In this document: one piece after another, positions 45,074 to 60,379 of the stretch
Numbering within the stretch: the stretch's first letter is position 1
How the letters are laid out: each line of letters opens with the position of its first letter
Source of the DNA: a plasmid
Direction: 5' to 3' (one strand)
Sequence record: NZ_CP031419.1
DNA: 64,000 nt
The notes under the pieces: generated by a model
Seen by the model: the letters and a program-made list of their open reading frames with translations, nothing else
Told to the model about the DNA's origin: nothing
The model's database searches: none
Position numbers and translations under genes: made by a program

Positions 45074-45805
45074 CTAGGAGCCCTCCAGGAACGCCGTGAG
45101 CGCCGCTGCGGCGGCGATGCTGGGTTCGGGCTCCCCGGCGTGCGGCCAGTCCTCCACGTGCAAGCTCAGGTCATCCCAGAGCTTTCGGGCTTCGGCGATC
45201 AGCACGGCCCGGTCGATACCGGTGCGGCCGTTCACCCACTCGGCCAAGTTCGGGCAATAGTGCTCCCCGGCCCAACCCTCGGCGATGGCCCTGGCCTCGT
45301 ACGCGGTGATCACGGTGTCGAAGCTGCCGTCGGTGTAGATGCGCTGGGCGACCGCTTCGTAGACGCTGGGCACCGTTTCAGTGGTTTGCCAGACACGCAC
45401 CTCGGTGGTGAAGGTCAGCACGTCACCGGGCATCTCCTCGTCGCGACGGTCGAGCCAGAACGGTGCCACCTCGGCTCTGGGGACACTGGTCAGGCTTTCG
45501 CGGTCGATGCACTTGTTGCCGTACATGCCGGAGGTGCCGGTGTAGTCGATGCTCCCATCGGGATCGAGAATGAAGCCGTAATCGGGGTCGTCCCCGCAGG
45601 CGAACAACTCGCCGCTGTAGGCAGTGACCCACAAACGGGAGCGGTACCCGCCGGGGTGAACGAGGATATCGCCGGTCCAGGGGCTGGTGGGCCCGGCCGC
45701 ACGGGCCACGACGCCGCGGCGAGCGCGGGCCTCATCGGCGGTGGTCCAGCGGGAGCGGTCGAACATCGTGAATGGCATCGGAGGAAGTCCTTCCGGAGAA
45801 GTCAT
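45074..45805 (-). CDS. hypothetical protein
   Basis: Start at MTSPEGLPP (243 aa). Upstream portion of track ORF 45074..47149 is antisense/other-frame noise overlapping the methyltransferase. Confidence 0.45.
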   Translation of the reverse strand: MTSPEGLPPMPFTMFDRSRWTTADEARARRGVVARAAGPTSPWTGDILVHPGGYRSRLWVTAYSGELFACGDDPDYGFILDPDGSIDYTGTSGMYGNKCIDRESLTSVPRAEVAPFWLDRRDEEMPGDVLTFTTEVRVWQTTETVPSVYEAVAQRIYTDGSFDTVITAYEARAIAEGWAGEHYCPNLAEWVNGRTGIDRAVLIAEARKLWDDLSLHVEDWPHAGEPEPSIAAAAALTAFLEGS

Positions 45806-45862
45806 GGGGGCCAGGGGTTTCAATCGCGGATGGGGTTGCGGGAGTGGACGAGAAAGGAAGGG

Positions 45863-45899
45863 CCAGGGAGGGGGCCCGGTGTGCGGGCCCCCTCCCTGG
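45863..45899 (-). terminator. 16-bp-arm GC-rich hairpin downstream of the methyltransferase stop (also in 5' leader of next gene)
   Basis: CCAGGGAGGGGGCCCG-gtgtg-CGGGCCCCCTCCCTGG, followed on the minus strand by TTCCTTTCT. Confidence 0.35.
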
Positions 45900-45903
45900 T
45901 GGA

Positions 45904-47583
45904 TCACGCCGCCGGGGTGTAGCGGTCGAGCTCTTCGCCGGTGATGGCCTCCACCAGCGCAGAGATCAAAATCTCGGCAGCGGGCGGGGTGACGGCGTTG
46001 CCGAGCTGGCGCACCCGTTGGCGCTTGTTGCCGAGCACGATGTAGTCCTTGCGGAACGCCATCGCGTCCTGGATCTCGTGCGGCTCCAACATGCGGAACC
46101 GAGTGTTCTCGATGTCGCGCTCGGTGATCATGTCGACCAGAGCGAACCGGTCGCGGGTGCTGACCGTGCCCAGCGGTTCGGTGGCGGGCCGGGCGGTGCC
46201 GGTGCTGTAGTAGGGCAGCAGCAGCGTGTTCCACAGCTCGGGCGACATCCCGGCGGGCGGCGTGACCAGGCCGTGGTGATTGCCGCTGGCGGTGACGGTG
46301 GCCAGGGCCTCGGTCACCGGACGCGCGTCCGAGGAACCGCCGCGCAGCTCGGCGACGAAGGGGAGGAACGCCACCGCCGTCTCGTTGCGGGTGGTCTGGG
46401 TGCGCAGCGGCATCGAGGCCAGCTGGGCTTCCTTGCCGTCGCGACCCTCCATCGGAATCATCAGCGGCGGCGGCACGACCAGGCCGTGGTTGGAGCCGTC
46501 GGCAACGACCGTGGCGAGGGGTTCGTTCAGCCCGATCGTGCGGGGGCGGTCCGAGCGCAGCAGCGCCAGGAACGGCTGCGGGATCGCGAGCCCGTCGTTC
46601 TCCCGGGTGGTGCGGGCGGCCATGGGCCCTGTGACCTGGGTGGCGTCGTCGCGCCAGGTTCCCCCGGCGGGGACCATCATCGGCATCATCGAGGCGTAGC
46701 GGCGCATCCCGACGCGAATGCGTTCCATGGTCTTGGGAGCCAGAGGCTTGTCCCGGTCGCCGATGCGGGTGCCCGGCAGGGTCCAGTCGATCGCGGCGGC
46801 CGCCGGGAGCGCGGGCGGCTCCACGATCGAGTTGCGGCAGCTGACGCGAGGGCAGCGGTACACGTACTGGGTGCGGTAGCGCCCCATGTCGGCATTGGGC
46901 TTCTTGAAGACCTGGAGGGCGCTCACCCACTCGTCGCAGGCCAGGCAGTACGACAACGGGCGGAGCCACTTGTTCCAGTCGGGCTCGCGGCCGAGCTTGA
47001 GATCCCAGTAGGCGACGTAGAGCCGGTCCCGGGACTGCGGGGCCGCCGGAGTGCGAACCGGCTGGGCATGGCTGGAGTTGAGGGCGATGACCTTGACCCC
47101 GTAGCCCAGGGCCCGGATCTCGCCGATCCAGCGGTTCCACTGGTCCCACTGACGGACCTCGACCACGTTCTCCACGACCCCGGCGCGGACCCGGCCACCG
47201 CGCTCGATCACGCCGCGCAGGTACATCGGGACCTCTTCCATCAGCGCCCTGCTGCGGTCGGCTTCCTCATCGCGCTGAAGGTCGAGGAGGTCACCTTGGA
47301 GGGTGTTGTCGTAGTCGCGCTTCTTGCCGCGCGCCGAGGACCACTGCGGGCACTCCGGCGAGGCCCAGAAGATATCGGCCACAGGCCATTTCACGATCTG
47401 TTCTTTGGCCTCTTCGGTGCTCAGGTCTCCGAGGAAGTGATCGGCCTCGGGGTAGTTGGTGGCATGGGTCTCGATGGCCTTCGACCAGTGGTTCGCCGCG
47501 CGGGTGACGCGCACACCGGGCACCTTCGATGCGCCCTGAGTGGAGCCGCCAGCGCCGCAGAACCAATCCATCAATTCGAGCAT
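45904..47583 (-). CDS. DNA (cytosine-5)-methyltransferase, orphan (no cognate endonuclease seen)
   Basis: Motif I DWFCGAGG, PC motif ASPECPQWS, ENV motif VVENVVEV. 559 aa. Confidence 0.8.
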   Translation of the reverse strand: MLELMDWFCGAGGSTQGASKVPGVRVTRAANHWSKAIETHATNYPEADHFLGDLSTEEAKEQIVKWPVADIFWASPECPQWSSARGKKRDYDNTLQGDLLDLQRDEEADRSRALMEEVPMYLRGVIERGGRVRAGVVENVVEVRQWDQWNRWIGEIRALGYGVKVIALNSSHAQPVRTPAAPQSRDRLYVAYWDLKLGREPDWNKWLRPLSYCLACDEWVSALQVFKKPNADMGRYRTQYVYRCPRVSCRNSIVEPPALPAAAAIDWTLPGTRIGDRDKPLAPKTMERIRVGMRRYASMMPMMVPAGGTWRDDATQVTGPMAARTTRENDGLAIPQPFLALLRSDRPRTIGLNEPLATVVADGSNHGLVVPPPLMIPMEGRDGKEAQLASMPLRTQTTRNETAVAFLPFVAELRGGSSDARPVTEALATVTASGNHHGLVTPPAGMSPELWNTLLLPYYSTGTARPATEPLGTVSTRDRFALVDMITERDIENTRFRMLEPHEIQDAMAFRKDYIVLGNKRQRVRQLGNAVTPPAAEILISALVEAITGEELDRYTPAA

Positions 47584-47606
47584 GGGAATCGTCCCTTCGT
47601 GATTTG

Positions 47607-47670
47607 CGAGTGGGTCGAAGAAGGCGGGGTGTCCGGTCCCGCTTCCTTCTATGTCATATATTACCCGTTA
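47607..47670 (-). promoter_or_regulatory. conserved hairpin leader/promoter element, copy 1 (upstream of methyltransferase)
   Basis: GCGAGTGGGTCGAAGAAGGCGGGGTGTCCGGTCCCGCTTCCTTCTATGTCATATATTACCCG, nearly identical to the copy at 59232..59298. Confidence 0.6.
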
Positions 47671-48019
47671 AAGTTGATCGAGGTCAAGAACTTTCTTGAC
47701 GTGTCTTTTATCGAAATTATCTGTGCGGCAACAGCTTTCGATTCTCCTGCCGACCTGGGGATCGGGGCCGCAAACGCTACCGATACAATGGATGTTTTAG
47801 ATACACTGGAAGTGTTCGAAAAGTGCCCGCTCCCCGCGTTCGCCCACGTCAACGGAGCCGGAAGGGCTCGACAACGGCGTCGGGCCCAGCGGCGAACCCG
47901 CGAGCAGACACCGATCACACGAGAACCGCTGAGCGCTCGCGCGTCTCGGACCGGCCGCATACGTCGGAACGAGGTGGAAGACTTGCGGGCGAACGAGGCG
48001 TGGCCGACGCAACCGAACG

Positions 48020-48964
48020 ATGGAGCAGCCGATGACCGATGCCAGATCCGACCCCGCCGCACCCGAGGCGAGCCTCGGGGACCTCCAGGCCGAGGCGATC
48101 ACCCTGCTCACCCGCGTCTCGAGGATGCAGCGCTCCCGTCCGGCGGCGAACGGCGCTGCGGCCGCCCGCGCGACCGATCCGATCGACTTCGCCGAATTCG
48201 TCACCCAGGTGATGGCCGGAGTGGCCGCCAACCGGGGCGGCGTCGCCGTGCTGGCCGGTCGGCCCGGCAGCTGGGAGGCCGACAAACTGCGCGACATGCT
48301 CTACAGCACCGTCGGCGAGGACGAATGGGCGCTGGCCGAGCACCGCACCGAACCCGTGGTGATCCCGCTCGCGATCGAGGAAGTCCTGATCGACGCCGGG
48401 GAGCCCGAGGAATACGAACCCGAGGACCGCGCCCAGGAGATCGTCCGGCGCGCCCAGACCGCCGGCCTCAGCGTGGACGAATGGCTGACCCGCTGGAACG
48501 GCCGCGAACCGGTCTTCACCCGATGGCGGCCGTTGATGAAGCCCGAGGACCACTACGACGAGCAGGTCAACGCGGTCGAGAACCGCCACGACGATGCCTA
48601 CACCGCCCTCGAGGCCCGCTACCCCGAGGACACCGACTACAGCGTCTACGCCGCCGAGGCCGAGCAGCTCGACGCGCAGCGTGACGCCGAACTCGCCGCG
48701 CTGCGGGAGCGGTGGCGTCGGCGCTACCAGCGCTACGCCACCGCATTCGAGGCGGCCGTGCGGGCCAAGGCCGACGAGCTCGGGGTGCGGGTACCGCTCG
48801 AAGTCCAGGTCGAGACGGACCCGGACCGAACCTGGGACGCCCGCCAGAACATCGCTCCCGGCTGGGCCGACGCCGACCGGCTCGCCGTCCGCCTGTACGA
48901 GCACGCCCGCGAAGTCACCCCCACCGCCCTTCTGACCACCGACGAGCCCGACACCGAAGGCTGA
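48020..48964 (+). CDS. hypothetical protein
   Basis: 314 aa, acidic. Divergent from the methyltransferase. TTTAGATACACT motif about 230 bp upstream. Confidence 0.4.
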   Translation: MEQPMTDARSDPAAPEASLGDLQAEAITLLTRVSRMQRSRPAANGAAAARATDPIDFAEFVTQVMAGVAANRGGVAVLAGRPGSWEADKLRDMLYSTVGEDEWALAEHRTEPVVIPLAIEEVLIDAGEPEEYEPEDRAQEIVRRAQTAGLSVDEWLTRWNGREPVFTRWRPLMKPEDHYDEQVNAVENRHDDAYTALEARYPEDTDYSVYAAEAEQLDAQRDAELAALRERWRRRYQRYATAFEAAVRAKADELGVRVPLEVQVETDPDRTWDARQNIAPGWADADRLAVRLYEHAREVTPTALLTTDEPDTEG

Positions 48965-48970
48965 GGCCCC

Positions 48971-49288
48971 ATGACCGCCGAGAGCGCCCCCAAAACCCCA
49001 CCGGCACAGCGGGTTCTGACCGTCGGGCAGATCCGCGAAGCCCTTGCACAGTTCCCCGACGATCTCCCGCTGATGGTGTGCGTTCCCGTCGACGACGACA
49101 CCTACGAAAGCTACGGAGTCACGATGGGCCCCTACCACCAGCGGGCTGACTGGGGCGACGGGCTCGGCCCGGTCGCTGACGAACGCTACGTCGCCATCGA
49201 CGCCATGGCGTACTTCCTTGCTCTGCGAGAGGAGCTGGAGATCACCTCCGCCGACTCGGTCGCATCCGAGCAGGAGGCCGGACTGTGA
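48971..49288 (+). CDS. hypothetical protein
   Basis: 105 aa, tightly packed with neighbours. Confidence 0.35.
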   Translation: MTAESAPKTPPAQRVLTVGQIREALAQFPDDLPLMVCVPVDDDTYESYGVTMGPYHQRADWGDGLGPVADERYVAIDAMAYFLALREELEITSADSVASEQEAGL

Positions 49289-49728
49289 GCACACCCCGGA
49301 ACCCGTCGAGTCGCGAAACCGCCACCACCGGAAGGGAACTCGTCAAGTACGAGCCCTACCTTGAGCTCGTCTCGCGGCTGTGGTTCGCGGCGGCCGTGAA
49401 CCCGAACCGCCTCGCCGAGAAGATCGCGAGAACGACCCGCTTGAGCCGCAGCAGCTCGGTCATTTTCGTCGACGAACCGGTGACCTGGGAGACGCTGCCG
49501 CAGCGGCTCGCCGAGCGCCGACGCGACTACGCCGGGTACTTCGCGTCCCTGCCCCCGGTGGAGGCCGCCGCCTCTCGGCGGGGCTTGCTCCAGCGGCCCA
49601 CGCCGGAGATGGAGGCTACCGTCGCGGAGGCCGCCGCGCGGGTCTTCGCGCGGAGACAACAACCCGGCCCGGCTCAAAAATCCCAGCGCGCCAACGACAC
49701 CCACGCATCCGAGGGGGAACACCGATGA
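49285..49728 (+). CDS. hypothetical protein
   Basis: 147 aa, 4-nt overlap with the upstream gene. Confidence 0.35.
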   Translation: MSTPRNPSSRETATTGRELVKYEPYLELVSRLWFAAAVNPNRLAEKIARTTRLSRSSSVIFVDEPVTWETLPQRLAERRRDYAGYFASLPPVEAAASRRGLLQRPTPEMEATVAEAAARVFARRQQPGPAQKSQRANDTHASEGEHR

Positions 49729-49976
49729 AGGATCTCACCGCGACCGACCGACGCTTGGGCGAGGCCCTGGCCCAGCGTGACGAGGCGGCCCTGTCCAAGG
49801 TGGCCGACGAATTCGCCGCCGCCGGGCTGCCCGCCATGGCGCAGCTGTTGCGCGACCGCGGGACCGCAGGCGCAGCAGGGTTGCTGTCGGGGTTGACCGG
49901 GTGGTCGGTTCCGTCGGCGCACGGAGTCCGCCATCACCGTCACGGTGACGTAACTCCCGAGGGTCGTAGGTCGTGA
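49725..49976 (+). CDS. hypothetical small protein
   Basis: Internal Met of ORF 49380..49976 (MKDLTATDRRLGEALAQRDEA...). Overlaps the upstream stop. Confidence 0.3.
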   Translation: MKDLTATDRRLGEALAQRDEAALSKVADEFAAAGLPAMAQLLRDRGTAGAAGLLSGLTGWSVPSAHGVRHHRHGDVTPEGRRS

Positions 49977-50236
49977 CGGAGTCATGGCACTGTGAAGCGT
50001 ACGGACCCGAAGGTGTCGAAGTCGGGGCCCGGTGTTTCGTCGCGGGCGAGCTGCACGAGCGGGTCTGCACCGATCCGGGCGTGTGTCACCGGACGATGGT
50101 GGCAGAACGCCAGAGGGTTTTCCGGCGGATGAACGAGTTGGCCGCCGGTGGGTCGCCGTGGGCGGCCGACTTGGCGCAGGAGTTCGCCAGCCCCGAGCGG
50201 ATTCTCGGCGGCACGGACGAAGACCCCAGTTCCTGA
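49973..50236 (+). CDS. hypothetical small protein
   Basis: 87 aa, overlapping start and stop with the previous gene. Confidence 0.3.
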   Translation: MTESWHCEAYGPEGVEVGARCFVAGELHERVCTDPGVCHRTMVAERQRVFRRMNELAAGGSPWAADLAQEFASPERILGGTDEDPSS

Positions 50237-50572
50237 TTCGGCCGTGGCCACGCGTGTGGGATGCCGCGTCTTTGGCATACTGGCTGCGGGCCGTGGCGGG
50301 CGGCCCTACGGCCTGCTGATGCAGCGGGAGACCCCGTTGAAGAAGCGTATCGCTCCACCCGCCCACTAACATTGATGCCCTGCTGACGCTGATATGGAGC
50401 TGAACTGGGCAAATGCGGTTCTGGCTCCGGATAACTGCCATTATCCGGAGTGACACCAAAAAACACTACGGTGAGATACCCCCGCGCGGAGCACCTTTAG
50501 ATACATTAGAATAAATGGGCATGGCGGGAGCGCGATACCCGCGTCCACCAGCGGCGAACGCCGCCGGAGGAG

Positions 50573-51505
50573 ATGACCCAGAGCGACGGGGGAGAGGGGA
50601 AACCGATGACCAAGGCAAACGACCCGGCGGTAGCGGCGGACGCGGAAGGCTGGCGGCTCGATCCGGTGCGCCTGGACTGGGATACGGTCCTCCTCCGCGA
50701 TCCCGCATACCGTGATCCTGCCGAACTGCTGTTCGCGGGCAAAACGATGGGGATCGGCGGAATTGCCGCTCTGGTCGGCGTACCCGTCACCGCCTTCCTG
50801 GCCCTGCTGACGGACTGGGCCTCGTGGTGGTGGTGCATTCTCGCCGCAGGCATCCTTATCGTATCCGGGCTGTCGACCGCAGCGATCGGAGCGGCCTTGG
50901 ATCAGCGGCAGATGGAGAAGGCCACGCTGACCGGGGCAAGGCTGAAGGTATTGCCGCCGGCCCTCTGCCGTCCGCTGGCCCGCGCGATTCTTGCCATCGA
51001 GGACATCAAGTCCGGCCGGGCATTTCGCGAGAAGTATCTGGGCGAGCTGGAGCTGAGCGCAACGGCCTGGCAGATGGCGCAAACAGCGCTGCGCGGAGGA
51101 GAACTGGTGGCGGCGCGGACCGAGCTGCTCGACGCCGAAGAAGGAGTCATCTCGCCCGCCGACCGTGTTGCGGCCGAAGCCGCGCAGCGGACGGTCGACG
51201 AGCTGGTCGAGGGCCTGGAGCGTGACGCCGAAGCCCTGGCCACCGCAGCGGCATCGGCCCGGACGCTGTCAACGGCGCTGGAGGACACGGAGGCGCGCGC
51301 ACTGGCGGAAACCGAGCGGGAACGAATCTCCCGCCAGCAGCTCGCGCGCCGACACCGGCTCGACGCGGCGCTCGCTGCGGTCCGCACCGCCGACGAGGCC
51401 AATTCCCCTGACACCGCAGATCTCGCGGTCGCCCGCGCCGCCGCCTACGCCGAAGTCATGCAGCTCGGTGGGACACCTACCCCCGGCCTGGTACAGCCGG
51501 ACTGA
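50573..51505 (+). CDS. membrane protein (two TM helices) with coiled-coil C-terminus
   Basis: IGGIAALVGVPVTAFLALL...WWWCILAAGILIVSGLSTAAIGA. TTTAGATACATTAG motif about 75 bp upstream. Confidence 0.4.
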   Translation: MTQSDGGEGKPMTKANDPAVAADAEGWRLDPVRLDWDTVLLRDPAYRDPAELLFAGKTMGIGGIAALVGVPVTAFLALLTDWASWWWCILAAGILIVSGLSTAAIGAALDQRQMEKATLTGARLKVLPPALCRPLARAILAIEDIKSGRAFREKYLGELELSATAWQMAQTALRGGELVAARTELLDAEEGVISPADRVAAEAAQRTVDELVEGLERDAEALATAAASARTLSTALEDTEARALAETERERISRQQLARRHRLDAALAAVRTADEANSPDTADLAVARAAAYAEVMQLGGTPTPGLVQPD

Positions 51506-52469: not shown

Positions 52470-52784
52470 TCAGAGATCGAACCGGACGGCGAGCACCATC
52501 TTGATGAAGTCGAGCATCTCGGTAGTCACCGTCCCGTCGTAGGTTCCGGCCTCGAGTACCGCTCGCACGCAGGGAATGAACCGGTGTACGGCGAGCACGC
52601 GGCCCTCGTCCCAGCCCACCGAGAAGATTCGCAGGTCTTGCGGCATCTCCCGGGCGTCGACGACCGGCACCGCCAGCGCCACATCACGATGGCGCAGCAA
52701 CGCCTGGCCGTCGACGATCACCACGGTCAGATAGCCGTCACCGGCGGCGATGGTGTAGATGTCGCCCTGGTGCAGTTCCCTCAC
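52470..52784 (-). CDS. MazF/PemK-like toxin candidate
   Basis: 104 aa with an N-terminal GDIY... beta-strand pattern and AVPVV segment consistent with the MazF/PemK fold. 4-nt overlap with the upstream RHH gene. Confidence 0.5.
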   Translation of the reverse strand: MRELHQGDIYTIAAGDGYLTVVIVDGQALLRHRDVALAVPVVDAREMPQDLRIFSVGWDEGRVLAVHRFIPCVRAVLEAGTYDGTVTTEMLDFIKMVLAVRFDL

Positions 52785-52990
52785 AGGGACATGCCCATGC
52801 CGATGCGCAGCAAGTCGGCATCGCTGTACTTCGGCGGGTTCTGTTGCTCGTGCGCGGCGATGCGCCGCAACTCCTTGTCCGCGAGCCGCTGGAGCACGGC
52901 CCGGTTGATCTCGGCACTGACGTTGCCCTCCGCGCTCTCGCGCAGAGCCTGGGCCGTCGCGTCCGGGAGGCTGATGTTCAGTTTCGCCAT
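52781..52990 (-). CDS. RHH-family antitoxin candidate
   Basis: 69 aa, LNISLPDATAQALRESAEGNVSAEINRAVL (ribbon-helix-helix). Overlaps the toxin gene start. Confidence 0.5.
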   Translation of the reverse strand: MAKLNISLPDATAQALRESAEGNVSAEINRAVLQRLADKELRRIAAHEQQNPPKYSDADLLRIGMGMSL

Positions 52991-53042: not shown

Positions 53043-53747
53043 TCAGAGCGGGAACAGCGACGGTTGGGCGTTGGCATTGCCAGTCCAGGACAAAACGTTG
53101 GGGAGGTTCGCGTCCGGGGCGAAGGTGAGGTAGGTCCCATCGACACTGTCGCAGCCGATCGCAGTCGCGTAGTCATAGCGGCGGCGCGAGTTCACCCGGC
53201 CCATATGGACCCACTTGCCGAGGCTCGAGGCGACCGCGGCGAGGTTCGCCGCCGCCGGGCCGAGCTTCCAGGCGGTGTCCCCGGCGAGGAACAGACAGTC
53301 AATCTCGTCCCACGGGTCCCAGGTGTCGAACTCCATGAAATTCTGGGCCGCGAAGGCGACGGGAAACCCGAGATCGCGGATGCGCCGCAGCATCGGCAGA
53401 GAGCGGGCGAGCGTGGCGAAGTGGTCGCCGACAACGTCGGGCGCCACCACGAACAGACAGCGGTCGGCGTGCGGGCGCAGCCGGCCGAGCCAGTTCAGGT
53501 AGGCGTCGTCACCGGGATAGGCCCCGCCGAACACCCCGTTGTCGGCACACCACAGCGGGTAGTCAGCGCTCAGGCGGTTGCCTTGAGCGGGAGTCATGAT
53601 CGCGCCCAGTTCCTCGGCGCGGATTCGGTCGCGGATCGCGGGTGTGCTGGGTGGGGTGAGGTAGAGCGGAGCGCCAGGAGTGCAGTCGTGCCAGCGCTCG
53701 GCCGCCCAGCTCTCATTAAAACGTTCGTTTTGGTTATCGGCAGGCAT
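53043..53747 (-). CDS. hypothetical protein, possible TGT-fold (DpdA-like?) enzyme
   Basis: 234 aa. Segment WVHMGRVNSRRRYDYATAIGCDSVDGT loosely resembles the HxxG...G.D.FDs segment of tRNA-guanine transglycosylase-like proteins. Speculative. Confidence 0.3.
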   Translation of the reverse strand: MPADNQNERFNESWAAERWHDCTPGAPLYLTPPSTPAIRDRIRAEELGAIMTPAQGNRLSADYPLWCADNGVFGGAYPGDDAYLNWLGRLRPHADRCLFVVAPDVVGDHFATLARSLPMLRRIRDLGFPVAFAAQNFMEFDTWDPWDEIDCLFLAGDTAWKLGPAAANLAAVASSLGKWVHMGRVNSRRRYDYATAIGCDSVDGTYLTFAPDANLPNVLSWTGNANAQPSLFPL

Positions 53748-53846: not shown

Positions 53847-54512
53847 CTAGAAGGTGAGTGTGAACCGCAGCGCGGCGCGGTACTCCTCGAACTCGACATC
53901 GAGGATCTTGCCGGTGAACTTCTCCCAGTTGCCCACAACGACGAAGTGCCGTTCGGCCAGCTGGCGCGTGGCTTCCTCGGTCGTGTCGACTGGAGTGGCT
54001 GGCGGGTCGAGCGGGACAAAGGTGCCCATCGGGTGGTCCTCGTAGTCGAAGACCTCGACCGTGCCGCCCGGGGACCAGGTCGCGCGCACCGTGATCACGC
54101 CCCGGAACTCGGCCTCCATGGCCCTGACGATTTCGGTCAGCTGATCGGCTGCGGTGAACAGCGCGGTCGCGCGCTCGTGCAGATCCGGGCGGTTACCAGC
54201 GAACAAGCGATCCATGTACGCGCGGGCGGTATCGGTGTAGGTGTTGACGGTGTCGCCCAGGACAGCGAGCACGCCGTCGCCCTCGGCGCCTCCGTGGAAG
54301 TGGCCGACGGCGGCCGCCGCCGCGAGCGCGCGAACGGTCAGGTCGGCGGCGCAATCGACGAACCCGTCGGCGTCCTGGACCGCCAACTCCTGCGCGACCT
54401 CGGTCAGGAACCGCACGACCTTGCTGGTCTCGGTCGCGGGCCGGGTGTCCTCGGTGGCGGGGCGCAGCGGGAACGGGTTGCTGATGATCTCCATGATCGG
54501 GAGTCCCTTCAA
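53847..54512 (-). CDS. hypothetical protein
   Basis: 221 aa, preceded by conserved leader copy 2. Confidence 0.4.
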   Translation of the reverse strand: MKGLPIMEIISNPFPLRPATEDTRPATETSKVVRFLTEVAQELAVQDADGFVDCAADLTVRALAAAAAVGHFHGGAEGDGVLAVLGDTVNTYTDTARAYMDRLFAGNRPDLHERATALFTAADQLTEIVRAMEAEFRGVITVRATWSPGGTVEVFDYEDHPMGTFVPLDPPATPVDTTEEATRQLAERHFVVVGNWEKFTGKILDVEFEEYRAALRFTLTF

Positions 54513-54516
54513 GGTG

Positions 54517-54582
54517 TGCGAGTGGGGGATGAAGGGGCGGGGTGTCCGGTCCCGCCGCCTTCTGTGTCATATATTACCCGTT
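54517..54582 (-). promoter_or_regulatory. conserved hairpin leader/promoter element, copy 2
   Basis: TGCGAGTGGGGGATGAAGGGGCGGGGTGTCCGGTCCCGCCGCCTTCTGTGTCATATATTACCCGTTA. Confidence 0.6.
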
Positions 54583-54631
54583 ATCTGGAATGAGTCAAGT
54601 CTTCCCGCGTATGTGTGGTGTGTGTCGCCGG

Positions 54632-55903
54632 TCAGGCCGATATTGGGAACAGCGCCAGGTCGGTGCCGGTGGCCTGCGCCCACCAGTCGGCGAATCCTGG
54701 CCGTTCCTTGTCGGCGACGACGGCGGGGGCGACGACGAAGAAGTGCTCCAGCTCGTGCGGGCTCGTGCCGTCCCGGCCGGGGACGACCGCGCGGGCGATG
54801 CCGTCGTCCCCGAGCTCGCGGCGGGTGTCGACGAGCGCCGGGGAGCCGTCGGGCCCGCCGATATCGACCCGCAGCGGAGCGCCGTCGAGCCAGGCGGCCA
54901 TCTCTTCGCGAGAACCGACGTCGACCGACCGCACCGATCGCGCGACCATCTTGGCCCCGCCGGTTTGGGTGCGCCGGGCGAGGCGGCGGACCTCGTAGAG
55001 GGCGTGAGGTTGTTCGGCGAGCGCACTCTCGAAGGCGGCCAGGACGCCGGTGAGTCCGGCCGCGCGCACGTAGTCGATGGCGCGCTTGCCGCCGACGAGG
55101 CCCTGTTTGGCGTTGAGCGCGAGTGCGGTGTGCTCCATCAGCAGCATCCGCGCCCCGGCGTCTGGGAACGCCGCGTAGCGCGCCAGGGTGGCGACTCGAT
55201 TGGCAGCGGTGACCAGCGCGAAGGGACAGAACACGCACGCCGACTTCTGCCATGCTCGGCCGGTCTTCTCCCGGATGTAGGCCAGCACCTGTTCCCGGTC
55301 CCAGCCCCAGGAGATCAGTGGGTACTCACCACGCCGCAGCGCGGTGTCGTATCCGGCGTCGCGGCGGGCCCGCGTCAGCTCGCCTGCCTCGAATCCGACG
55401 ACGTGCCGGTACGGCCGTCCGTGTGTAATCGCGGCGATCACCGGGTCGAGCACTTCGCCCTTGGCCGACATGCTGCACCGACGACTGCCACCGACCTGCG
55501 GCTGAGTGCCGGCCGTGAGCATCTCGGTGCCGAGGGTGTAGGCGCCCTCGATATAGAGGCGGTGCGGCGATCGGGAGTCGTCGAAGACGATGACGCCGGT
55601 GCCATCAGCGCGCACCCGGCGGTCGGCCCGCCCGACCTGGATGAACCGAATCCGGTGCTGGGCCAGTAGCGGGAGCACGACCTCGGCCACGTCCCGTGCG
55701 GTGTCTTCCCATTCGTCGCCCACCATGGCGGTGACGACGGCCAGCTCCGCCAGGTCGAAGTCGCGGCTGTCGGGGTCGAAGATCCAGCGCAGCAGCAGGG
55801 CGGTGCTGTCGGCCCCAAGTCCATAGGACAGCACGACTCGGGGCGCGGGTTCGTGCGCGGCGAGCTGCTCCCGCAGTGCCGCGGGCACAGCGGGCCCGGT
55901 CAC
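54632..55903 (-). CDS. PP-loop (PAPS-reductase/DndC/QueC-like) superfamily protein candidate
   Basis: Probable GTG start (VTGPAVP...). SYGLGADST resembles the SGGxDS PP-loop. A Cys cluster KSACVFCPF follows. The N-terminal 86 codons of the track ORF are Arg-rich noise overlapping a small gene. Confidence 0.4.
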   Translation of the reverse strand: MTGPAVPAALREQLAAHEPAPRVVLSYGLGADSTALLLRWIFDPDSRDFDLAELAVVTAMVGDEWEDTARDVAEVVLPLLAQHRIRFIQVGRADRRVRADGTGVIVFDDSRSPHRLYIEGAYTLGTEMLTAGTQPQVGGSRRCSMSAKGEVLDPVIAAITHGRPYRHVVGFEAGELTRARRDAGYDTALRRGEYPLISWGWDREQVLAYIREKTGRAWQKSACVFCPFALVTAANRVATLARYAAFPDAGARMLLMEHTALALNAKQGLVGGKRAIDYVRAAGLTGVLAAFESALAEQPHALYEVRRLARRTQTGGAKMVARSVRSVDVGSREEMAAWLDGAPLRVDIGGPDGSPALVDTRRELGDDGIARAVVPGRDGTSPHELEHFFVVAPAVVADKERPGFADWWAQATGTDLALFPISA

Positions 55904-56211
55904 CGGTTCGCCCGATCGCGGACGCGCAGGGCCACCCCGCCCGAGCCCGGCGGGCAGGTGCAGCCCGCCGCGTGCAGCTCGTCGGTGATGCGCCGCCAGG
56001 CGCGGTAGTGCCGTAGTCCGCCCTCGACGGCCACCGCACCGGCGAGGAACATCAGGCTGGAGATGATCGCGGGGAACTCCGACGACACTGCGCCGAGGGC
56101 GTACATCGAGCCCCCGGTCAGCCAGCCGGTGGCCACAACGGCGTGTGCCTGGGCGAGCCAACTCTGGTCGTGCTGTTCGTCATGACGTCGGTCGTGCTGG
56201 AAGTTGTTCAC
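55900..56211 (-). CDS. small membrane protein (hidden inside a longer spurious ORF)
   Basis: GTG start 7 nt after GGAGGAG. Two TM helices (SMYALGAVSSEFPAIISSLMFLAGAVAV). Partial conserved leader (GCGCGAGTGGGGATGGGCGG) upstream. GTGA overlap with the next gene. Confidence 0.35.
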   Translation of the reverse strand: MNNFQHDRRHDEQHDQSWLAQAHAVVATGWLTGGSMYALGAVSSEFPAIISSLMFLAGAVAVEGGLRHYRAWRRITDELHAAGCTCPPGSGGVALRVRDRANR

Positions 56212-56258
56212 GGGAAAACTCCTCCGGGAATGCGCGAGTGGGGATGGGCGGATGGCGG

Positions 56259-56876
56259 TCAGCGCGCCGTGTCCGGTTCGGCGTCGGTGCCGCCCGCGAC
56301 GAGAGAGCGCGGGCGAAAGTCGCGCGCGAACCGGTCGGTGAGCTGCGCCAGCAGCGCGAGCAATTGGTCGCGGGGAACGTCGACCGACTGGAAGGACCCG
56401 CCGAAGCGCACCGCGTCGGCGTCCGGGGCGATGGTGAGCCGTTCCCGGCCGTCGCCGAGGTCGGTGACCTCGAGCCGGTCGCCGTCGGCGTCTTCGAAGA
56501 CGGTGTGCGGCATGACGCGGATGCTGTCGGGCAGGCCCGCCGGGCGGACGCCGTGGCGCAGCAGGGCGACGGTCTCGGGCGTCAGCGCGCTCGCGGTGCG
56601 CAGCCGGAGTTCGAGTTCGCCGTCGTCGCTGTAGGCGATCAGCCGCCCGTCGAGGTCGTAGAAGTCGAGCCAGAGCCCGAACTCGTCGGCGCGGTCGGTG
56701 GCCGCGCCGACGGCCAGCCCGTTGGCCAGCAGCCCGCGAATGATCCAGCCGGTCGGCCCGAGCGGGGTCACCTGGGCGGAGTCGACGCTGTAGCGGTCGA
56801 TGAGGTCGAGCTCGTCGCGGAACGGGGTGTCCAGCACCGAGGACCACGCCCGCGCGTCCTGGTCTTTGCGCGACAT
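56259..56876 (-). CDS. hypothetical protein
   Basis: Start MSRKDQDARAW. ATGA overlap with the upstream gene's stop. Confidence 0.4.
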   Translation of the reverse strand: MSRKDQDARAWSSVLDTPFRDELDLIDRYSVDSAQVTPLGPTGWIIRGLLANGLAVGAATDRADEFGLWLDFYDLDGRLIAYSDDGELELRLRTASALTPETVALLRHGVRPAGLPDSIRVMPHTVFEDADGDRLEVTDLGDGRERLTIAPDADAVRFGGSFQSVDVPRDQLLALLAQLTDRFARDFRPRSLVAGGTDAEPDTAR

Positions 56877-57535
56877 CACGCCCGCCCCTCGTCGGTCAGC
56901 GAGGCCCACCAGCCGTCGACGAGGCCGTGCGCTGTCCAGTCCGCGAGCTGGGCGTGCGCGCAATCGCGGTGTGCGACCACCGCCGCGGCGCGCTCGATCG
57001 GGTAGCAGTGCGAATGCGTCGAGCAGCCCTGAGTCCAACCGGGTACGTCCTCGTCGAGCACGATGACGTTCGTAGGGACCAAGCCGTCGGAGGTGAGCGG
57101 GCCGAGCAGAGTGGCTTCCCGGTCCGGGTCGCCGAGCGCGGCGGCGGGCAGCATCGCGAAATCCCAGCGCCGGGAAGAGGACAGGACTGCGACGCGGACC
57201 GGATCGTGCAGCAGCGCGGCGGCGGCCTGCACGGCGGCCACGGCGGTGTAGCCGTAGCAGAAGATCTCGAGCGGGGTGCCGTCGAGACGGGAGTAGACCG
57301 AGGCGCACCACTCGGTGCTAGCGGCGATTTCGTCCGCGCCGAGCGCCAGGCCGTCGCCGTTGCACACGAGCATCTCCAGCGGGATGCCCCGGACTTCGCC
57401 GACGGGAATGTAGATGTTCACGTGGCCGACGACGCGGACCTGCGCGTCGTAACCGAGTTCGGTCAGCGCGGTCAACTCAGGTGCGTAGCGCACCTGTGCC
57501 TCGGCGACGAGAGCGTCGAATTTGGTGGAGGGCAT
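56876..57535 (-). CDS. hypothetical protein
   Basis: 219 aa, preceded by conserved leader copy 3. Confidence 0.4.
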   Translation of the reverse strand: MPSTKFDALVAEAQVRYAPELTALTELGYDAQVRVVGHVNIYIPVGEVRGIPLEMLVCNGDGLALGADEIAASTEWCASVYSRLDGTPLEIFCYGYTAVAAVQAAAALLHDPVRVAVLSSSRRWDFAMLPAAALGDPDREATLLGPLTSDGLVPTNVIVLDEDVPGWTQGCSTHSHCYPIERAAAVVAHRDCAHAQLADWTAHGLVDGWWASLTDEGRA

Positions 57536-57558
57536 TGCCCTGCTCCCTTCGGGGGATT

Positions 57559-57618
57559 TGCGAGTGGGGATCGAAGGGGGCGGGGTGTCCGGTCCCGCCC
57601 GGCTTCGGTGTTGCTCAG
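57559..57618 (-). promoter_or_regulatory. conserved hairpin leader element, copy 3 (lacks the TGTCATATATTACCCG module)
   Basis: TGCGAGTGGGGATCGAAGGGGGCGGGGTGTCCGGTCCCGCC. Confidence 0.5.
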
Positions 57619-57624
57619 GTGGTG

Positions 57625-58284
57625 TCAGTGGCGCTCGCGCGGTTCTGCGGTGGCGAGCAGTTCGAGCAGGGCTTCGATGTCGCTAGAGCCCGCGAGGCGG
57701 GCGGCGAGGGGTGTCCGCATGCGGGTGATTACGGCGTGCAGCGTGCCGCGCGGACCATCGGACACTGGATGCCGGTCGCCGGTGCGCGGGTCCACGAGCT
57801 CGCCGGTGACCTGGATGTCGATCAACGGGTTCCGGCGGAACACCAGGAAGCAGCGCGTGGTGACGTAGTCGAATTCGATGTCGGCTCCGAACGCAAGGGC
57901 CGGTTCGGGGGCGTCGCGGACGATGACCTCGAAGTAGCGGTAGCCAGAGAAGATCGCGGTGAACGGTGCGGTGCACACGGTGACGCTGAGCCATTGCCGG
58001 GTGCCCGCGTGCCAGGCGGTGTAGGGGCCGGTGCGGGTGAGATCGGTCAGGGTCTCCACGAACGCCGCGTGACGCGCCTCGTAGTCCGGCGTCCGCCACC
58101 ATGCGCGGCTGTCGCCCCGATGGAACCGGGCGATACAGAACAACACGGTCCCGCTGACGAGCAAGCCCGCGACGTCGAGCCAAGCGCGCCGTTGCACCGC
58201 CGTGTACAGGCTGGAGCCGATCGCGGCGGCCGCCACGAACATGGTCAGGGGGAACAGCTTGTTGAGAATCTTGCGGATCACGAT
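57625..58284 (-). CDS. membrane protein
   Basis: Probable GTG start after GAAAGG. N-terminal TM helix (MFVAAAAIGSSLYTAV). Confidence 0.4.
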   Translation of the reverse strand: MVIRKILNKLFPLTMFVAAAAIGSSLYTAVQRRAWLDVAGLLVSGTVLFCIARFHRGDSRAWWRTPDYEARHAAFVETLTDLTRTGPYTAWHAGTRQWLSVTVCTAPFTAIFSGYRYFEVIVRDAPEPALAFGADIEFDYVTTRCFLVFRRNPLIDIQVTGELVDPRTGDRHPVSDGPRGTLHAVITRMRTPLAARLAGSSDIEALLELLATAEPRERH

Positions 58285-58331: not shown

Positions 58332-58715
58332 TCAGCCGTTGACCCACTCGATCGGCACTTCCACGCCCCAGAAGCGGCGGTGGAGCAGCCGCCGGGCGTT
58401 CTCGGCGTCGGTCAGCCGTCCGTCGCGGCGGCGGAAGTGGACGATCGGGCAGCCCTCGATCGAGGGCCAGAAGGTGCCGTCGGCGTGCCGGATTCCGGAC
58501 TGGATCAGGGCGTACGCCTCGCGGCCGGAGCCACCCGAGTTGCACGCGGTCACCCGGACGACGGGCACCCCGGCGGCGATCCGCGCGTCGCGCTCGGCGA
58601 CGGCCTCGGCGGTGTCGAAGTACTCGGGGTCGTGATTAGAGGCGTAGAGAGCGGCGCGGATCTGCTCGGCGGTGCACTGCACGTTCAGCTGTCCGGCCGC
58701 GGCGGTGGAGGGCAT
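58332..58715 (-). CDS. hypothetical protein
   Basis: Start MPSTAAAG. A diverged leader copy (GCGAGTGGGGGAGCGACGGGCGGAAGTGTCCGGTTTCCGCC) lies upstream at ~58735-58790. Confidence 0.35.
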   Translation of the reverse strand: MPSTAAAGQLNVQCTAEQIRAALYASNHDPEYFDTAEAVAERDARIAAGVPVVRVTACNSGGSGREAYALIQSGIRHADGTFWPSIEGCPIVHFRRRDGRLTDAENARRLLHRRFWGVEVPIEWVNG

Positions 58716-58801
58716 GAGGTGCTCCTTCGGCGATGGCGAGTGGGGGAGCGACGGGCGGAAGTGTCCGGTTTCCGCCCCGTCGCTTCGGGTGACGGAAAGG
58801 G

Positions 58802-59212
58802 TCAGAAGGGTGCTTCGTCGTCGCCCCACGGGGCGCTTGAGTCACCGCGCCCGTCGGCGGGCTCGTCGTCCTCGTCGTCGGGGTTCCAGTCGTCGGGGAC
58901 GCCGTCGGCCCACACCACTGCCTTGGCGTTGTGGTCCCAGGTGACGTTGGCGAGGGCCTGCACGTTCTCCAGCGAGGCGTCGTCTTCGACGCGAACGCCC
59001 GCCGGGATGTGCCACAGGTCGCCCCGGAAGTCCCAGGCCGACCCGCTGCGCTGGGCCGAGGAGCTGACTTCCTCGGCCGCCCAGGCGCGGGCGTCGGCCT
59101 CGGTGACGAATTCCTTCTCGTCGAGGGAGCGTCGCTCGGACGCGGGCGGGACGTCGGAGAAGACGACGTAGAAGCGATCGTGGTCCGCGACCACTGCTGC
59201 CAGAGGACTCAT
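58802..59212 (-). CDS. small acidic protein (DNA-mimic/anti-restriction candidate)
   Basis: 136 aa with a strongly D/E-rich C-terminus (PDDWNPDDEDDEPADGRGDSSAPWGDDEAPF). Preceded by leader copy 4. Confidence 0.4.
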   Translation of the reverse strand: MSPLAAVVADHDRFYVVFSDVPPASERRSLDEKEFVTEADARAWAAEEVSSSAQRSGSAWDFRGDLWHIPAGVRVEDDASLENVQALANVTWDHNAKAVVWADGVPDDWNPDDEDDEPADGRGDSSAPWGDDEAPF

Positions 59213-59231
59213 GGGAATGCCCTTTCGTAGG

Positions 59232-59298
59232 GTGCGAGTGGGGTCGAAGAAGGCGGGGTGTCCGGTCCCGCTTCCTTCTATGTCATATATTACCCGAT
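59232..59298 (-). promoter_or_regulatory. conserved hairpin leader/promoter element, copy 4
   Basis: GCGAGTGGGGTCGAAGAAGGCGGGGTGTCCGGTCCCGCTTCCTTCTATGTCATATATTACCCGATA. Confidence 0.6.
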
Positions 59299-59372
59299 AT
59301 ATCGGCGAAGGCCAAGCACTTTCCGATGGGTGAGTCGGATTGGTTCCCGCCCGATCGGTCTCGGGCGGGAAG

Positions 59373-59837
59373 TCAGTCGGTGCTGTAGGAGTGCCGGTGC
59401 CGGGCCGGGGCGCATTGCCGACGGCGCAGCACGGCGAGCCGTCGCGTGTCCTGCGATCGGGCGGGGCTCGATGGGCGCGCCGCCGGGCATCCCTCCGGTT
59501 CGCCGAGCGGTGCGGTGGCAGACAGAACAGCGAGGGCCGCCTCCCAGCGATCGGCCCGGTCCGCCGCCCGCAGCTGCACCGCCAGAACGGTCAGGCTCGC
59601 CGCGCCGACACCGACGGCGACCACGGCGAGCGGCGCGGACAACGGCATGGTCGCCACCGCCCACAGGAACGACAGCGCCGCGAGGCAGCCGTGCGCCGCC
59701 GACAGCGTGGTCGCGCCGGGTCGCTCGCCGGTGGCGGGGAACCGTTGCGCGTCTCGGCGGTAGGAGAGCGCGAGCGCGGCGAACACGACACCCGGCCCGC
59801 CGAGGAGCAGGGCCGGGACGGCGTACGAGGCGGACAC
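59373..59837 (-). CDS. hydrophobic membrane protein
   Basis: 154 aa with several TM-like stretches. High-GC composition makes this call tentative. Confidence 0.3.
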   Translation of the reverse strand: MSASYAVPALLLGGPGVVFAALALSYRRDAQRFPATGERPGATTLSAAHGCLAALSFLWAVATMPLSAPLAVVAVGVGAASLTVLAVQLRAADRADRWEAALAVLSATAPLGEPEGCPAARPSSPARSQDTRRLAVLRRRQCAPARHRHSYSTD

Positions 59838-59842
59838 AGCCG

Positions 59843-60379
59843 TCAGCTCCGCACCCGTGCGGCGGCTGGCGCGCCCGCGTCGGCGGCAGCGACCCGAACC
59901 GGATCGGCAGCGGCGGACGGACCGCCGGAACCGGCTGGAGCCGGATCGGGTTGTGGGACGGCGGCGGACGGGGTGACCGGCGTGCCCGGGGAGGTCGACT
60001 CAAGTTCGGAGTCCTCCGCCGGCGGCGGAGTCAGCGGCGCTTCGGCCGCAGCGGTCGACGCACGTGAGGGGCGAGGCCGAGGCTTGGCCTTCGCCCGCTT
60101 CGCCACAGCACGGATAGCGTCGGTGGGCTTGAGTCCGATCCGTTCCAGCGCGGCCGCCTCGGCTCCGGCATTGGTGGCCGCCTCGTAGGCAGCCACCACG
60201 GCATCCTCGGCAGCTTCCTCATCGGCGATCAACCGCGCTGTCTCGGCCCGGCGCGTCTCGGACGCCTGCTGCCATTCCCCGACCTTCACCGCGAGTTCGC
60301 CGATGCGCGTCTCCATATCGTCGTCGATGACCGCCCGCCGGTACGCGGACAGAGCATCGGTCGCCATCTTCTTCGCCAT
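59843..60379 (-). CDS. hypothetical protein, first gene transcribed away from oriT
   Basis: 178 aa with a coiled-coil N-terminus and a Pro/Ala-rich tail. Confidence 0.4.
   Translation of the reverse strand: MAKKMATDALSAYRRAVIDDDMETRIGELAVKVGEWQQASETRRAETARLIADEEAAEDAVVAAYEAATNAGAEAAALERIGLKPTDAIRAVAKRAKAKPRPRPSRASTAAAEAPLTPPPAEDSELESTSPGTPVTPSAAVPQPDPAPAGSGGPSAAADPVRVAAADAGAPAAARVRS

Follow-up and report, generated by a model that had tools for sequence, protein, structure and literature searches.

Introduction

RNA polymerase acting on the single-stranded DNA (ssDNA) that enters a conjugation recipient can use only that strand as template, and genes expressed in this way point toward the origin of transfer (oriT), as do ssb, psiB and psiA of the F plasmid. 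The leader operon of the IncP plasmid RP4 (traK-traM) is also located on the leading side and is transcribed away from oriT by a promoter that functions on double-stranded DNA (dsDNA), and in oriTs of the IncP and IncI type the inverted repeat and the relaxase operon are both found on one side of the nick. Here we analyse positions 45,074 to 60,379 (the block) of a 64,000-nucleotide stretch of Nocardia plasmid DNA (the window; sequence record NZ_CP031419.1), in which a cluster of genes adjoins a candidate oriT. We propose that the block is probably an establishment island centred on nucleic-acid modification, with a regulon of three promoters that would become active once the second strand has been made.

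In characterised leading regions the genes for anti-defence proteins, methyltransferases, SSB and toxin-antitoxin systems are oriented antisense to the transferred (T) strand, orphan methyltransferases are a hallmark, and relaxase genes are usually found in the lagging region (Samuel et al. 2024, PMC11541004). In known promoters of the ssDNA type the −35 and −10 boxes are re-formed by a large stem-loop (PMC12672017), and the nick motif of IncP and IncI plasmids is of the ATCCTG type (PMC3772185). Leading-region islands are known mainly from proteobacterial and Firmicutes elements that use ssDNA promoters and have the T strand as template. The Nocardia plasmid appears to have an island at the equivalent position with the opposite gene orientation, predicted promoters of the conventional kind and a 5′-untranslated region (5′-UTR) module that is absent from Rfam.

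Results

Gene map of the block

The window belongs to a conjugative plasmid of the Nocardia pNF1 family. Four Nocardia plasmids (N. farcinica pNF1, two other N. farcinica plasmids and one N. cyriacigeorgica plasmid) match it at 92–97% identity in a mosaic fashion (megablast), and one window protein matches an N. farcinica entry at 100% identity. As the G+C content of the DNA is 64–72%, the gene map was drawn with a codon-bias log-likelihood caller, which placed 72 open reading frames (ORFs) in the window. The block contains 22 of these, of which 17 are encoded by the minus strand and five by the plus strand (48020-49976 and 50573-51505), with four overlaps of 4 nt and one of 1 nt, consistent with the tightly packed minus-strand block described in the first-pass annotation of this DNA. 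The plasmid encodes both a relaxase and a type IV secretion system (T4SS; Table 1) and would transfer ssDNA, and thus the concept of a leading region is applicable to it. In the comparisons that follow L001 is an N. cyriacigeorgica plasmid, L003 a sister plasmid, L019 a divergent Nocardia metagenome-assembled genome (MAG) and L370 an island of Nocardia sp. CY41.

Predicted nucleic-acid-modifying enzymes

Two or three genes of the block appear to encode DNA- or nucleic-acid-modifying enzymes of the kinds used by phages and plasmids against restriction. The C5 DNA methyltransferase is predicted to be monocistronic under its own promoter (P3), and endonuclease models found no match near it, in agreement with its earlier description as an orphan enzyme without a partner endonuclease. 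It resembles the orphan and multispecific C5 methyltransferases of phages in being a solitary enzyme encoded by a mobile element, in having a promoter and a terminator of its own, in its length (559 aa) and in the repeated segments of its variable region. A 61-nt direct repeat in the gene (46256-46316 and 46469-46529, 74% identity) encodes two PLATVxAxGxxHGLVxPP-like segments, and four to five segments of the P(L/M)xT(V/Q) type are present in the variable region; the enzyme may possess more than one target-recognition domain.

The second enzyme, a probable DNA base-exchange enzyme, has a predicted TIM-barrel fold that is closest to tRNA-guanine transglycosylase (TGT) and DpdA. It matches phage queuine tRNA-ribosyltransferases in BFVD and is 47–53% identical to actinophage genes annotated as ‘DpdA-like tRNA-guanine transglycosylase’. 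Within an alignment of 31 family members D69-N-G, D104 and D200-S-V-D203 are invariant or nearly so, and their putative match to the catalytic aspartates of TGT, in DSGG-like and GxDxFD-like motifs, was made by eye and not by alignment. A homologue with 60% identity overlaps a Vut_1-family gene in five phage-like metagenome contigs; we take YhhQ to be a member of the Vut_1 family. YhhQ is a preQ0 transporter encoded by some phages (PMC6884629), and DpdA-type modification shields phage DNA from restriction (PMC6884629, PMC10516641). The Nocardia protein fits the ‘DpdA only’ group, which depends on a precursor from the host or another external source, but differs from phage DpdA in being much shorter (a core of ∼210 aa) and plasmid-borne. 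In the phage-like contigs (L125-L129) the Vut_1/YhhQ-family gene, at 5511-6041, is immediately upstream of the DpdA-like homologue in all five, and in L126 only an Acb5-family gene (7201-7893) lies two genes downstream.

The third candidate has a predicted Rossmann-like PP-loop fold, three invariant cysteines (143, 223 and 226) and a conserved motif, S26-Y-G28-L-G30-A-D32-S33, which is two residues longer than the classical SGGxDS. It has no match to Pfam PAPS_reduct, and PDB sequence searches with this protein, the DpdA-like protein and the profiles of both returned nothing significant. The gene is intact in the window. It is interrupted in L001 (11117-21299) by an insertion that carries two integrases and a TerC gene, while in L003 (19508-19996) only its C-terminal part remains. 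The first-pass annotation had proposed that the PP-loop and TGT-fold proteins could form a base-modification module. Both folds are supported by the structural models; a joint module is not. The two genes belong to different predicted transcription units, and there are sister plasmids in which the TGT-like gene is retained and the PP-loop gene is split or truncated. A 423-aa gene near the DpdA-like gene of the phage-like contig L127 was considered as a PP-loop homologue and rejected, as it is not homologous; there is no linkage of DpdA-like and PP-loop genes in that contig.

Candidate oriT and transfer polarity

As ssDNA, the 519-bp gap that separates the gene at 59843-60379 from the mobC-like gene is much more strongly folded than shuffled controls (z −8.8). 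Within it seven perfect or near-perfect hairpins stand back-to-back in the 180 bp upstream of the mobC-like gene, and several of these covary when compared with L019. Textbook oriTs, in contrast, display a single inverted repeat. The hairpin cluster separates the first minus-strand gene from the mobC-like/relaxase operon, so that the block sits across the oriT candidate from the relaxase.

Reading along the minus strand, the seventh inverted repeat (IR7, 60720→60699) is followed by 8 nt and a putative nick, TTTTGGG-ATATCTTG|CTCACC, between 60691 and 60690. The sequence TATCTTGC agrees at seven of eight positions with the MOBP consensus (C/T)ATCCTG(C/T), 5′ of which an inverted repeat is located (PMC3772185). 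The 10-mer TATCTTGCTC occurs once in the window, antisense to the relaxase and 8 nt 3′ of IR7. It is found at the equivalent place and strand in L001, L019, L124 and Prescottella equi pRErm46. In pRErm46 it lies beside an unrelated inverted repeat, ∼120 bp upstream of mobC and again antisense to mobC and the relaxase. The relaxase of L019 is 83% identical to that of the window and the left half of the oriT gap is only loosely conserved between the two, yet a 21-nt segment that contains the nick motif, GGTGAGCAAGATATCCCAAAA, is invariant. The IR7 palindrome itself has kept its outer arms while its inner stem has changed from CCCCGGGG to GTGGCCAC, an example of covariation.

As a MOBP-type motif is conserved on the minus strand, this strand is likely the T strand and the block is likely the leading region, which agrees with the usual location of relaxase genes in the lagging region (PMC11541004). 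The block is thus most likely the first DNA to enter the recipient, in line with the leading-side position assigned to it in the first-pass annotation. This polarity has a direct consequence for expression. A transferred minus strand would carry the 17 minus-strand genes in coding sense, and these could therefore not be transcribed from the incoming ssDNA; under the reverse polarity the genes would have a template but would be the last to arrive. For genes transcribed away from oriT, entering first and being expressed from the incoming ssDNA are mutually exclusive. Within the block only the plus-strand ORFs (48020..51505) have the orientation that an incoming minus strand could template, and the regions upstream of these are not unusually structured.

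Promoters and the repeated leader module

A covariance model identified five strong copies and one weak copy of a leader, all on the minus strand between 47.6 and 59.3 kb, extending the earlier description of a repeated hairpin leader. Its box CCCACTCGC occurs eight times against 1.6 expected. In three places, upstream of the acidic-protein gene (58802-59212), of 53847-54494 and of the methyltransferase, the leader is part of an 80–110-nt promoter-leader element, which comprises a −35 box (TTGACC, TTGACT or TTGGCC), a spacer of 16–18 nt, CGGGTAATATATGACA with the −10 box TAATAT, a stem-loop, CCCACTCGC, GAAGGG and the start codon. The hairpin is ∼12 bp, lies within the predicted transcript 3′ of a promoter of conventional form, and is also present between cistrons. 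A palindromic operator over the −10 box (GTnATATATnAC) was considered, but the sequence is mostly an ATATAT run and no claim is made for it.

Alignment of 11 leader copies from the window, a sister plasmid and L019 defines a 5′-UTR module consisting of a covarying hairpin with an invariant GGACAC loop, a CCACTCGC box ∼20 nt downstream and a strong Shine-Dalgarno (SD) sequence. The loop, C-N-GGACAC, and the box CCACTCGC are identical in 11/11 copies, while the stem varies, with compensatory changes in six of its eight pairs. As these changes represent few independent events the covariation is suggestive and falls short of statistical proof.

The module has a narrow distribution. Matches to the covariance model are confined to the block and its orthologues and are always in the sense of the genes; none was found in the T4SS region or in the related islands L370 and L371. 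Rfam searches gave nothing relevant at gathering or permissive thresholds. Within PLSDB the leader is found only in four pNF1-family plasmids, and BLAST detects 2–3 copies per whole sister plasmid. Among viral and metagenome contigs none of the 236 listed matches to GGACAC-N8-30-CCACTCGC had the context of hairpin, SD sequence and start codon. A scan of genome contigs with GGGTAATATATGAC, a short and AT-rich pattern for which nearly all matches are due to chance, gave one useful match, the Nocardia MAG L019.

In L001 (22927-23002) a hybrid leader combines the 5′ half of one window leader with the 3′ half of another (58713-58784 and 57533-57608), and the two genes that lie between these leaders in the window are missing. 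This points to recombination between leader copies, and the leaders therefore also serve as recombination joints for gene cassettes. The two genes downstream of the parental leaders start with an identical 12 nt (ATGCCCTCCACC, encoding MPST). We read the leader as a shared post-transcriptional control, a stabilizing and translation element that would make the units one regulon.

A separate motif, TGTATCTA/TAGATACA, occurs six times in the window against 0.11 expected (sites at 60429-60445, 50498-50505, 47798-47805, 34241-34248 and 28776-28783). Two of the copies stand in tandem and overlap with the −10 box in the 59843-60379 promoter; a further three are in AT-rich intergenic DNA. The motif looks like the operator of a second regulon.

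The acidic protein

The product of the first P1-driven gene is the most acidic among the window's 72 ORFs (net charge −22, or −0.16 per residue), much of the charge being located in its C-terminal tail. This matches the strongly acidic character recorded in the first-pass annotation. A strong net negative charge is also a trait of DNA-mimic anti-restriction proteins of the ArdA/Ocr type. The protein is restricted to Nocardia (seven clusters) and has no sequence match in Pfam, PHROGs or PDB, ArdA and Ocr included. The plasmid versions carry an extra C-terminal tail, ...DSSAPWGDDEAPF, that is lacking in five non-plasmid Nocardia homologues. In E. coli the C-terminal tip of SSB docks SSB-partner proteins. 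The region of the last 14 residues of the acidic protein, ...SAPWGDDEAPF, resembles the C-terminal tip of mycobacterial SSB (PDB 1ue1, 3afp), the M. tuberculosis and M. leprae proteins ending in ...DDPWGSAP...GGGDDEPPF and ...GDEEPPF. We hypothesize from this short motif that the tail mimics the SSB tip, which would make the protein a functional cousin of plasmid ssb and psiB products.

Related islands

The three genes closest to oriT are conserved across the family, including the divergent L019, and the first of them (59843-60379) is conserved in L001, L124 and L019. The island of Nocardia sp. CY41 (L370) draws on the same gene pool, with homologues of the methyltransferase (71% identity), the DpdA-like protein (75%) and the 53847 protein (59%) located beside an Acb5-family gene. 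An Actinomadura contig has a DpdA-like gene 7 kb from a weak Mom-family match. L370 has repeats of its own, a hairpin, CCGGGCAGCRGCTATCTGCCCGG, before three genes that include the methyltransferase, and tandem copies of AGGTTGGTA at two promoter-like regions (4034-4074, 4613-4663, 10657-10696, 11460-11509 and 11956-12006). The repeated-hairpin design thus recurs in L370 without shared sequence.

Other genes

The remaining features are listed in Table 1. The first-pass annotation had identified a MazF/ribbon-helix-helix (RHH) toxin-antitoxin pair. The layout resembles that of such a pair, in which the antitoxin gene comes first: the 69-aa ORF precedes the 104-aa ORF and the two share 4 nt. However, searches of Pfam, PADLOC and PDB found no match to MazF, PemK, CcdB or RHH families, and the identification is not upheld. 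The 104-aa protein has only three relatives among 1.8 billion cluster representatives. Downstream of the relaxase an ORF at 62943-63998 (plus strand) contains two internal repeats (…W..E..N.DT.DGRR..EAEI...W…) and has no Pfam match. Beyond the region matching the window, on an N. cyriacigeorgica plasmid (L373, 31509-37988), a 2159-aa ‘helicase-related protein’ is encoded on the trailing side, ∼8 kb past the relaxase, and is of the size class of the large helicase/methylase proteins of other conjugative elements.

Table 1. Features of the block and its surroundings, in order of position in the window.
Feature	Position	Strand	Remarks
Actinobacterial T4SS set (coupling protein, SCO6880-family protein, NlpC/P60)	5.8-25.6 kb	−	
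ParA and ParB	37.9-39.5 kb		
MerR/excisionase-like helix-turn-helix protein, 167 aa	44399..44998	−	Seventh CCCACTCGC box at 44990-44998, beyond the block coordinates
Acidic ORF, 230 aa	45074..45766	−	Synteny with the methyltransferase is kept in L001 and L003
Terminator-like hairpin, 16 pairs, after the methyltransferase	45863..45899	−	
Orphan C5 DNA methyltransferase, 559 aa, internal repeat in variable region	45904..47583	−	Pfam PF00145, E 1.6e-18; PHROG and PADLOC methyltransferase models
Predicted promoter P3 (TTGACC-N18-TAATAT) and leader copy	47584..47687	−	Upstream of the methyltransferase
Five ORFs, one DUF6225	48020..51505	+	Composition differs among the sister plasmids
DUF6011 small Cys-rich protein, 64 aa	51526..51720	−	Pfam 7.8e-11
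ORF, 170 aa	51860..52372	−	Weak HEPN match, E 1.5e-3, 19.1 bits against a Pfam cut-off of 22
Two-gene pair, 69 and 104 aa, 4-nt overlap, toxin-antitoxin-like layout	52470..52990 (52781-52990, 52470-52784)	−	
DpdA-like (TGT-fold) protein, 234 aa, probable DNA base-exchange enzyme	53043..53747	−	
Acidic ORF, 215 aa	53847..54494	−	Homologue in the L370 island
Predicted promoter P2 (TTGACT-N16-TAATAT) and leader copy	54495..54598	−	Upstream of 53847-54494
PP-loop ATP-pyrophosphatase-fold protein (predicted), 423 aa, C-terminal β-rich domain	54632..55903	−	
ORF, 103 aa, hydrophobic stretch	55900..56211	−	
Weak leader copy: short hairpin, ACCGGACAC loop, CCCACTCGC box	56212..56292	−	19.9 bits; before 55900-56211
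Two acidic ORFs, 219 and 205 aa, 1-nt overlap	56259..57535	−	
Leader copy without promoter	57536..57608	−	Covariance model 67.7 bits; upstream of 56876-57535
ORF, 218 aa, hydrophobic N-terminus	57625..58281	−	Absent from sister plasmids
ORF, 127 aa	58332..58715	−	Absent from L001, L003 and L124
Leader copy without promoter	58716..58784	−	Covariance model 67.5 bits; upstream of 58332-58715
Acidic protein, 136 aa	58802..59212	−	First predicted P1-driven gene; tail ...PWGDDEAPF
Predicted promoter P1 (TTGGCC-N17-TAATAT) and leader copy 1	59213..59315	−	Covariance model 82.5 bits; upstream of 58802-59212
Hydrophobic protein, 154 aa	59373..59837	−	
First leading-side gene, 178 aa	59843..60379	−	Own predicted promoter at 60463-60436, overlapped by two TAGATACA repeats
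oriT candidate	60685..60880	−	Seven adjacent hairpins at 60699-60880; ssDNA fold z-score −8.8
Sequence around the candidate nick		−	TTTTGGGATATCTTGCTCACC
Sequence of the MOBQ-like core region		+	CACCAGTGCGCCCGG
NikA/MobC-like relaxosome accessory protein, 139 aa	60899..61318	+	Pfam NikA-like 5.8e-5 and MobC 0.012, both below curated cut-offs
MobA/VirD2-like relaxase, 543 aa, MOBP	61315..62946	+	Pfam PF03432, 1.5e-7, above cut-off; sister plasmids typed MOBP by PLSDB

Discussion

The data presented above are consistent with the following sequence of events. The NikA/MobC-like protein and the MOBP relaxase would assemble on the seven hairpins (60.70–60.88 kb), and the minus strand would be nicked at TATCTTG|C (∼60691/60690) and leave 5′ to 3′, such that the DNA from 60.69 kb down to ∼45 kb is the first to reach the recipient. 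As the coding strand of the 17 minus-strand genes, the transferred strand would be silent until its complement had been made. The near-identical conventional promoters P1 (59.3 kb), P2 (54.6 kb) and P3 (47.7 kb) would then fire, giving transcripts that begin with the common 5′-UTR module (variable stem, fixed C-N-GGACAC loop, CCACTCGC box and strong SD sequence). Promoterless copies of the module precede three internal cistrons of the predicted P1 operon, and the leader would double as a homology patch for the exchange of gene cassettes. The recognizable products, the C5 methyltransferase, the DpdA-like base-exchange enzyme and the PP-loop enzyme with its three invariant cysteines, would all act on nucleic acids. 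The likeliest role of such an island is self-protection of the plasmid DNA from restriction in the recipient, together with establishment, a view suggested by analogy from the methyltransferase, the DpdA-like enzyme and the related islands with Acb5 or Mom-like genes.

Several observations weigh against this proposal. The DpdA-like protein has no match to the Pfam TGT family at E<0.1, and its family profile shows no similarity to E. coli Tgt (hhalign probability 0.3). It also differs from phage DpdA in lacking the zinc subdomain of TGT (CxCxxC...H), ending just past the barrel with none of its five cysteines in the pattern. No genes for preQ0 synthesis or transport are present in the window or the annotated sister regions, and a mycobacteriophage with a singleton DpdA, Orion, has no deazaguanine in its DNA, its host being without the pathway (PMC6884629). 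The disruption of the PP-loop gene in two sister plasmids implies that it is dispensable. The candidate nick was placed from its sequence, and its motif departs from the consensus at one core position. The transcription starts, the arrangement in operons and the role of the leader are likewise predicted. Finally, 16 of the 22 block ORFs have no match in Pfam, PHROGs or PADLOC, in keeping with the many small proteins of no recognizable family noted in the first-pass annotation, and 0/22 match ArdA, KlcA/ArdB, Ocr, ArdC, PsiB, SSB or anti-CRISPR families in these libraries. Support for the proposal that the block is an anti-defence island is therefore indirect, coming from its orphan methyltransferase, its DpdA-like enzyme and the related islands with Acb5 or Mom-like genes, and not from any recognized anti-restriction, anti-CRISPR, SSB or PsiB protein.

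The alternative to be taken most seriously, although we judge it unlikely, is that the block is ordinary mosaic accessory cargo, a mixture of phage-derived and orphan genes that happens to lie beside oriT and has no role in establishment or defence evasion. Such a view would accommodate the orphan ORFs and the missing anti-defence families, the failure of the singleton DpdA of Orion to produce a modification (PMC6884629) and the highly mosaic nature of the region, which tolerates integrase and TerC insertions as well as gene loss. It is less easily reconciled with the promoter-leader module that the three units share, as this is absent from the rest of the 64-kb window and from the sister T4SS region and is present in only 2–3 copies per whole sister plasmid. 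Conservation of the three oriT-proximal genes as far as L019, and the recurrence of the methyltransferase, DpdA-like and 53847 genes with Acb5 in L370, also speak against it.

It is improbable that transfer has the opposite polarity, with a nick in the plus strand, entry led by the mobC-relaxase side and the block trailing behind. In favour of this, the plus strand does contain a MOBQ-like core, AGTGCGCCC (consensus TAAGTGCGCCCT, PMC3832669), which lies at 60866-60874 and is 25 bp short of the mobC-like gene, and the position of the nick has been deduced from sequence. L019 does not conserve this core, and it was rejected as the nick for that reason; it forms the 3′ arm of a hairpin, and three of its positions differ in L019 while the hairpin is kept. 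Conversely, the opposite strand has the MOBP-like TATCTTGCTC, which L019 shares without change and which also occurs in P. equi pRErm46. Moreover, the relaxase has been assigned to the MOBP type, and relaxase genes are normally the last to enter (PMC11541004).

The leaders might be non-regulatory, acting as intrinsic terminators that lack the U tract or as 3′-end stabilizers between cistrons, or they might belong to a small repetitive element present in several copies. Many intergenic gaps, here and in L370, contain GC-rich hairpins that lack a T tract, and three of the leader copies do lie between cistrons. Neither a terminator nor a stabilizer, however, needs an invariant loop and a box 20 nt downstream that are maintained in 11 copies while the stem varies. 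Furthermore, three copies are directly 3′ of a promoter rather than after a gene, and all copies keep a fixed distance to the SD sequence and start codon and are always in the sense of the gene. We thus give these explanations little credence and retain the reading of the leader as a shared control element.

The model implied by the first-pass annotation, a leading anti-defence island whose leaders act like the Frpo/ssi promoters on ssDNA before complementary-strand synthesis, has in its favour the leading-side position, the hairpins repeated in front of genes and the orphan methyltransferase and toxin-antitoxin-like pair typical of leading regions (PMC11541004), but is very improbable given that a minus-strand nick makes the transferred strand the coding strand (and the reverse polarity brings the block in last), that the ∼12-bp hairpin is 3′ of a conventional promoter, inside the transcript and also between cistrons, and that the long intergenic regions of the block have no unusual ssDNA structure (z −1.4 and −1.6). 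Transcription away from oriT, which had been taken to fit a leading region, is the wrong orientation for early expression from ssDNA. The earlier interpretation is therefore partly supported, being right about the position of the block and in part about its content, and wrong about what the gene orientation and the hairpins mean.

Comparison with described systems places the Nocardia island in context. Like the leading-region islands of Samuel et al. (PMC11541004) it is beside oriT and opposite the relaxase, has small genes in one direction, an orphan methyltransferase and a toxin-antitoxin-like pair, and belongs to a mosaic pool. It differs in that its genes point away from oriT, in having no promoter of the Frpo/ssi type and no ArdA, KlcA, Acr, PsiB or SSB family member, and in its actinomycete host; neither Actinobacteria nor deazaguanine enzymes are mentioned in that study. 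The Frpo/ssi elements of F and IncI plasmids also place hairpin-forming DNA before leading-region genes, but Frpo is a large stem-loop that rebuilds −35 and −10 boxes on a template T strand (PMC12672017), whereas the Nocardia leader would be a 12-bp hairpin that lies in the transcript, in coding sense on the T strand and downstream of a normal promoter. The IncP leader operon offers the nearest precedent for genes on the leading side that are transcribed away from oriT. The block genes, however, are not relaxosome components, the nick core is TATCTTG rather than TATCCTG, and there are seven hairpins instead of one inverted repeat. Repeated asymmetric control sites are known in operons of mobile elements, namely the stoperators of mycobacteriophage L5 and CsrA-type sites, in which GGA is present in a loop and in the SD sequence. 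The leader resembles these in being a short asymmetric motif located in small gaps in one orientation, with GGA in the loop and again in the SD sequence, but has no sequence similarity to either, and no repressor or CsrA homologue was identified.

A more speculative and on balance doubtful extension is that the three promoter-leader units constitute an ‘entry regulon’ of the plasmid. In this scenario a trans-acting factor, which would be either an RNA-binding protein encoded by plasmid or host or a DNA-binding repressor acting in the manner of stoperators, would read the invariant GGACAC loop and the CCACTCGC box, keeping the island silent in established hosts and allowing a burst of expression after entry. 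The DpdA-like enzyme would insert a non-canonical base into the plasmid DNA, and the acidic ...PWGDDEAPF tail would mimic the SSB tip to engage or block SSB-partner proteins of the host. If true, such a regulon would be the actinobacterial counterpart of the ssb/psiB/ardA leading region, built of unrelated parts and driven from dsDNA.

If the block is indeed an establishment island, the ‘first in’ principle would extend to T4SS plasmids of actinomycetes, including clinical Nocardia and Prescottella equi plasmids. The functions known to assist plasmid establishment would come to include base exchange by a DpdA-like enzyme, and the block would provide a compact cis-element and ∼16 orphan proteins as candidates for new anti-defence activities.

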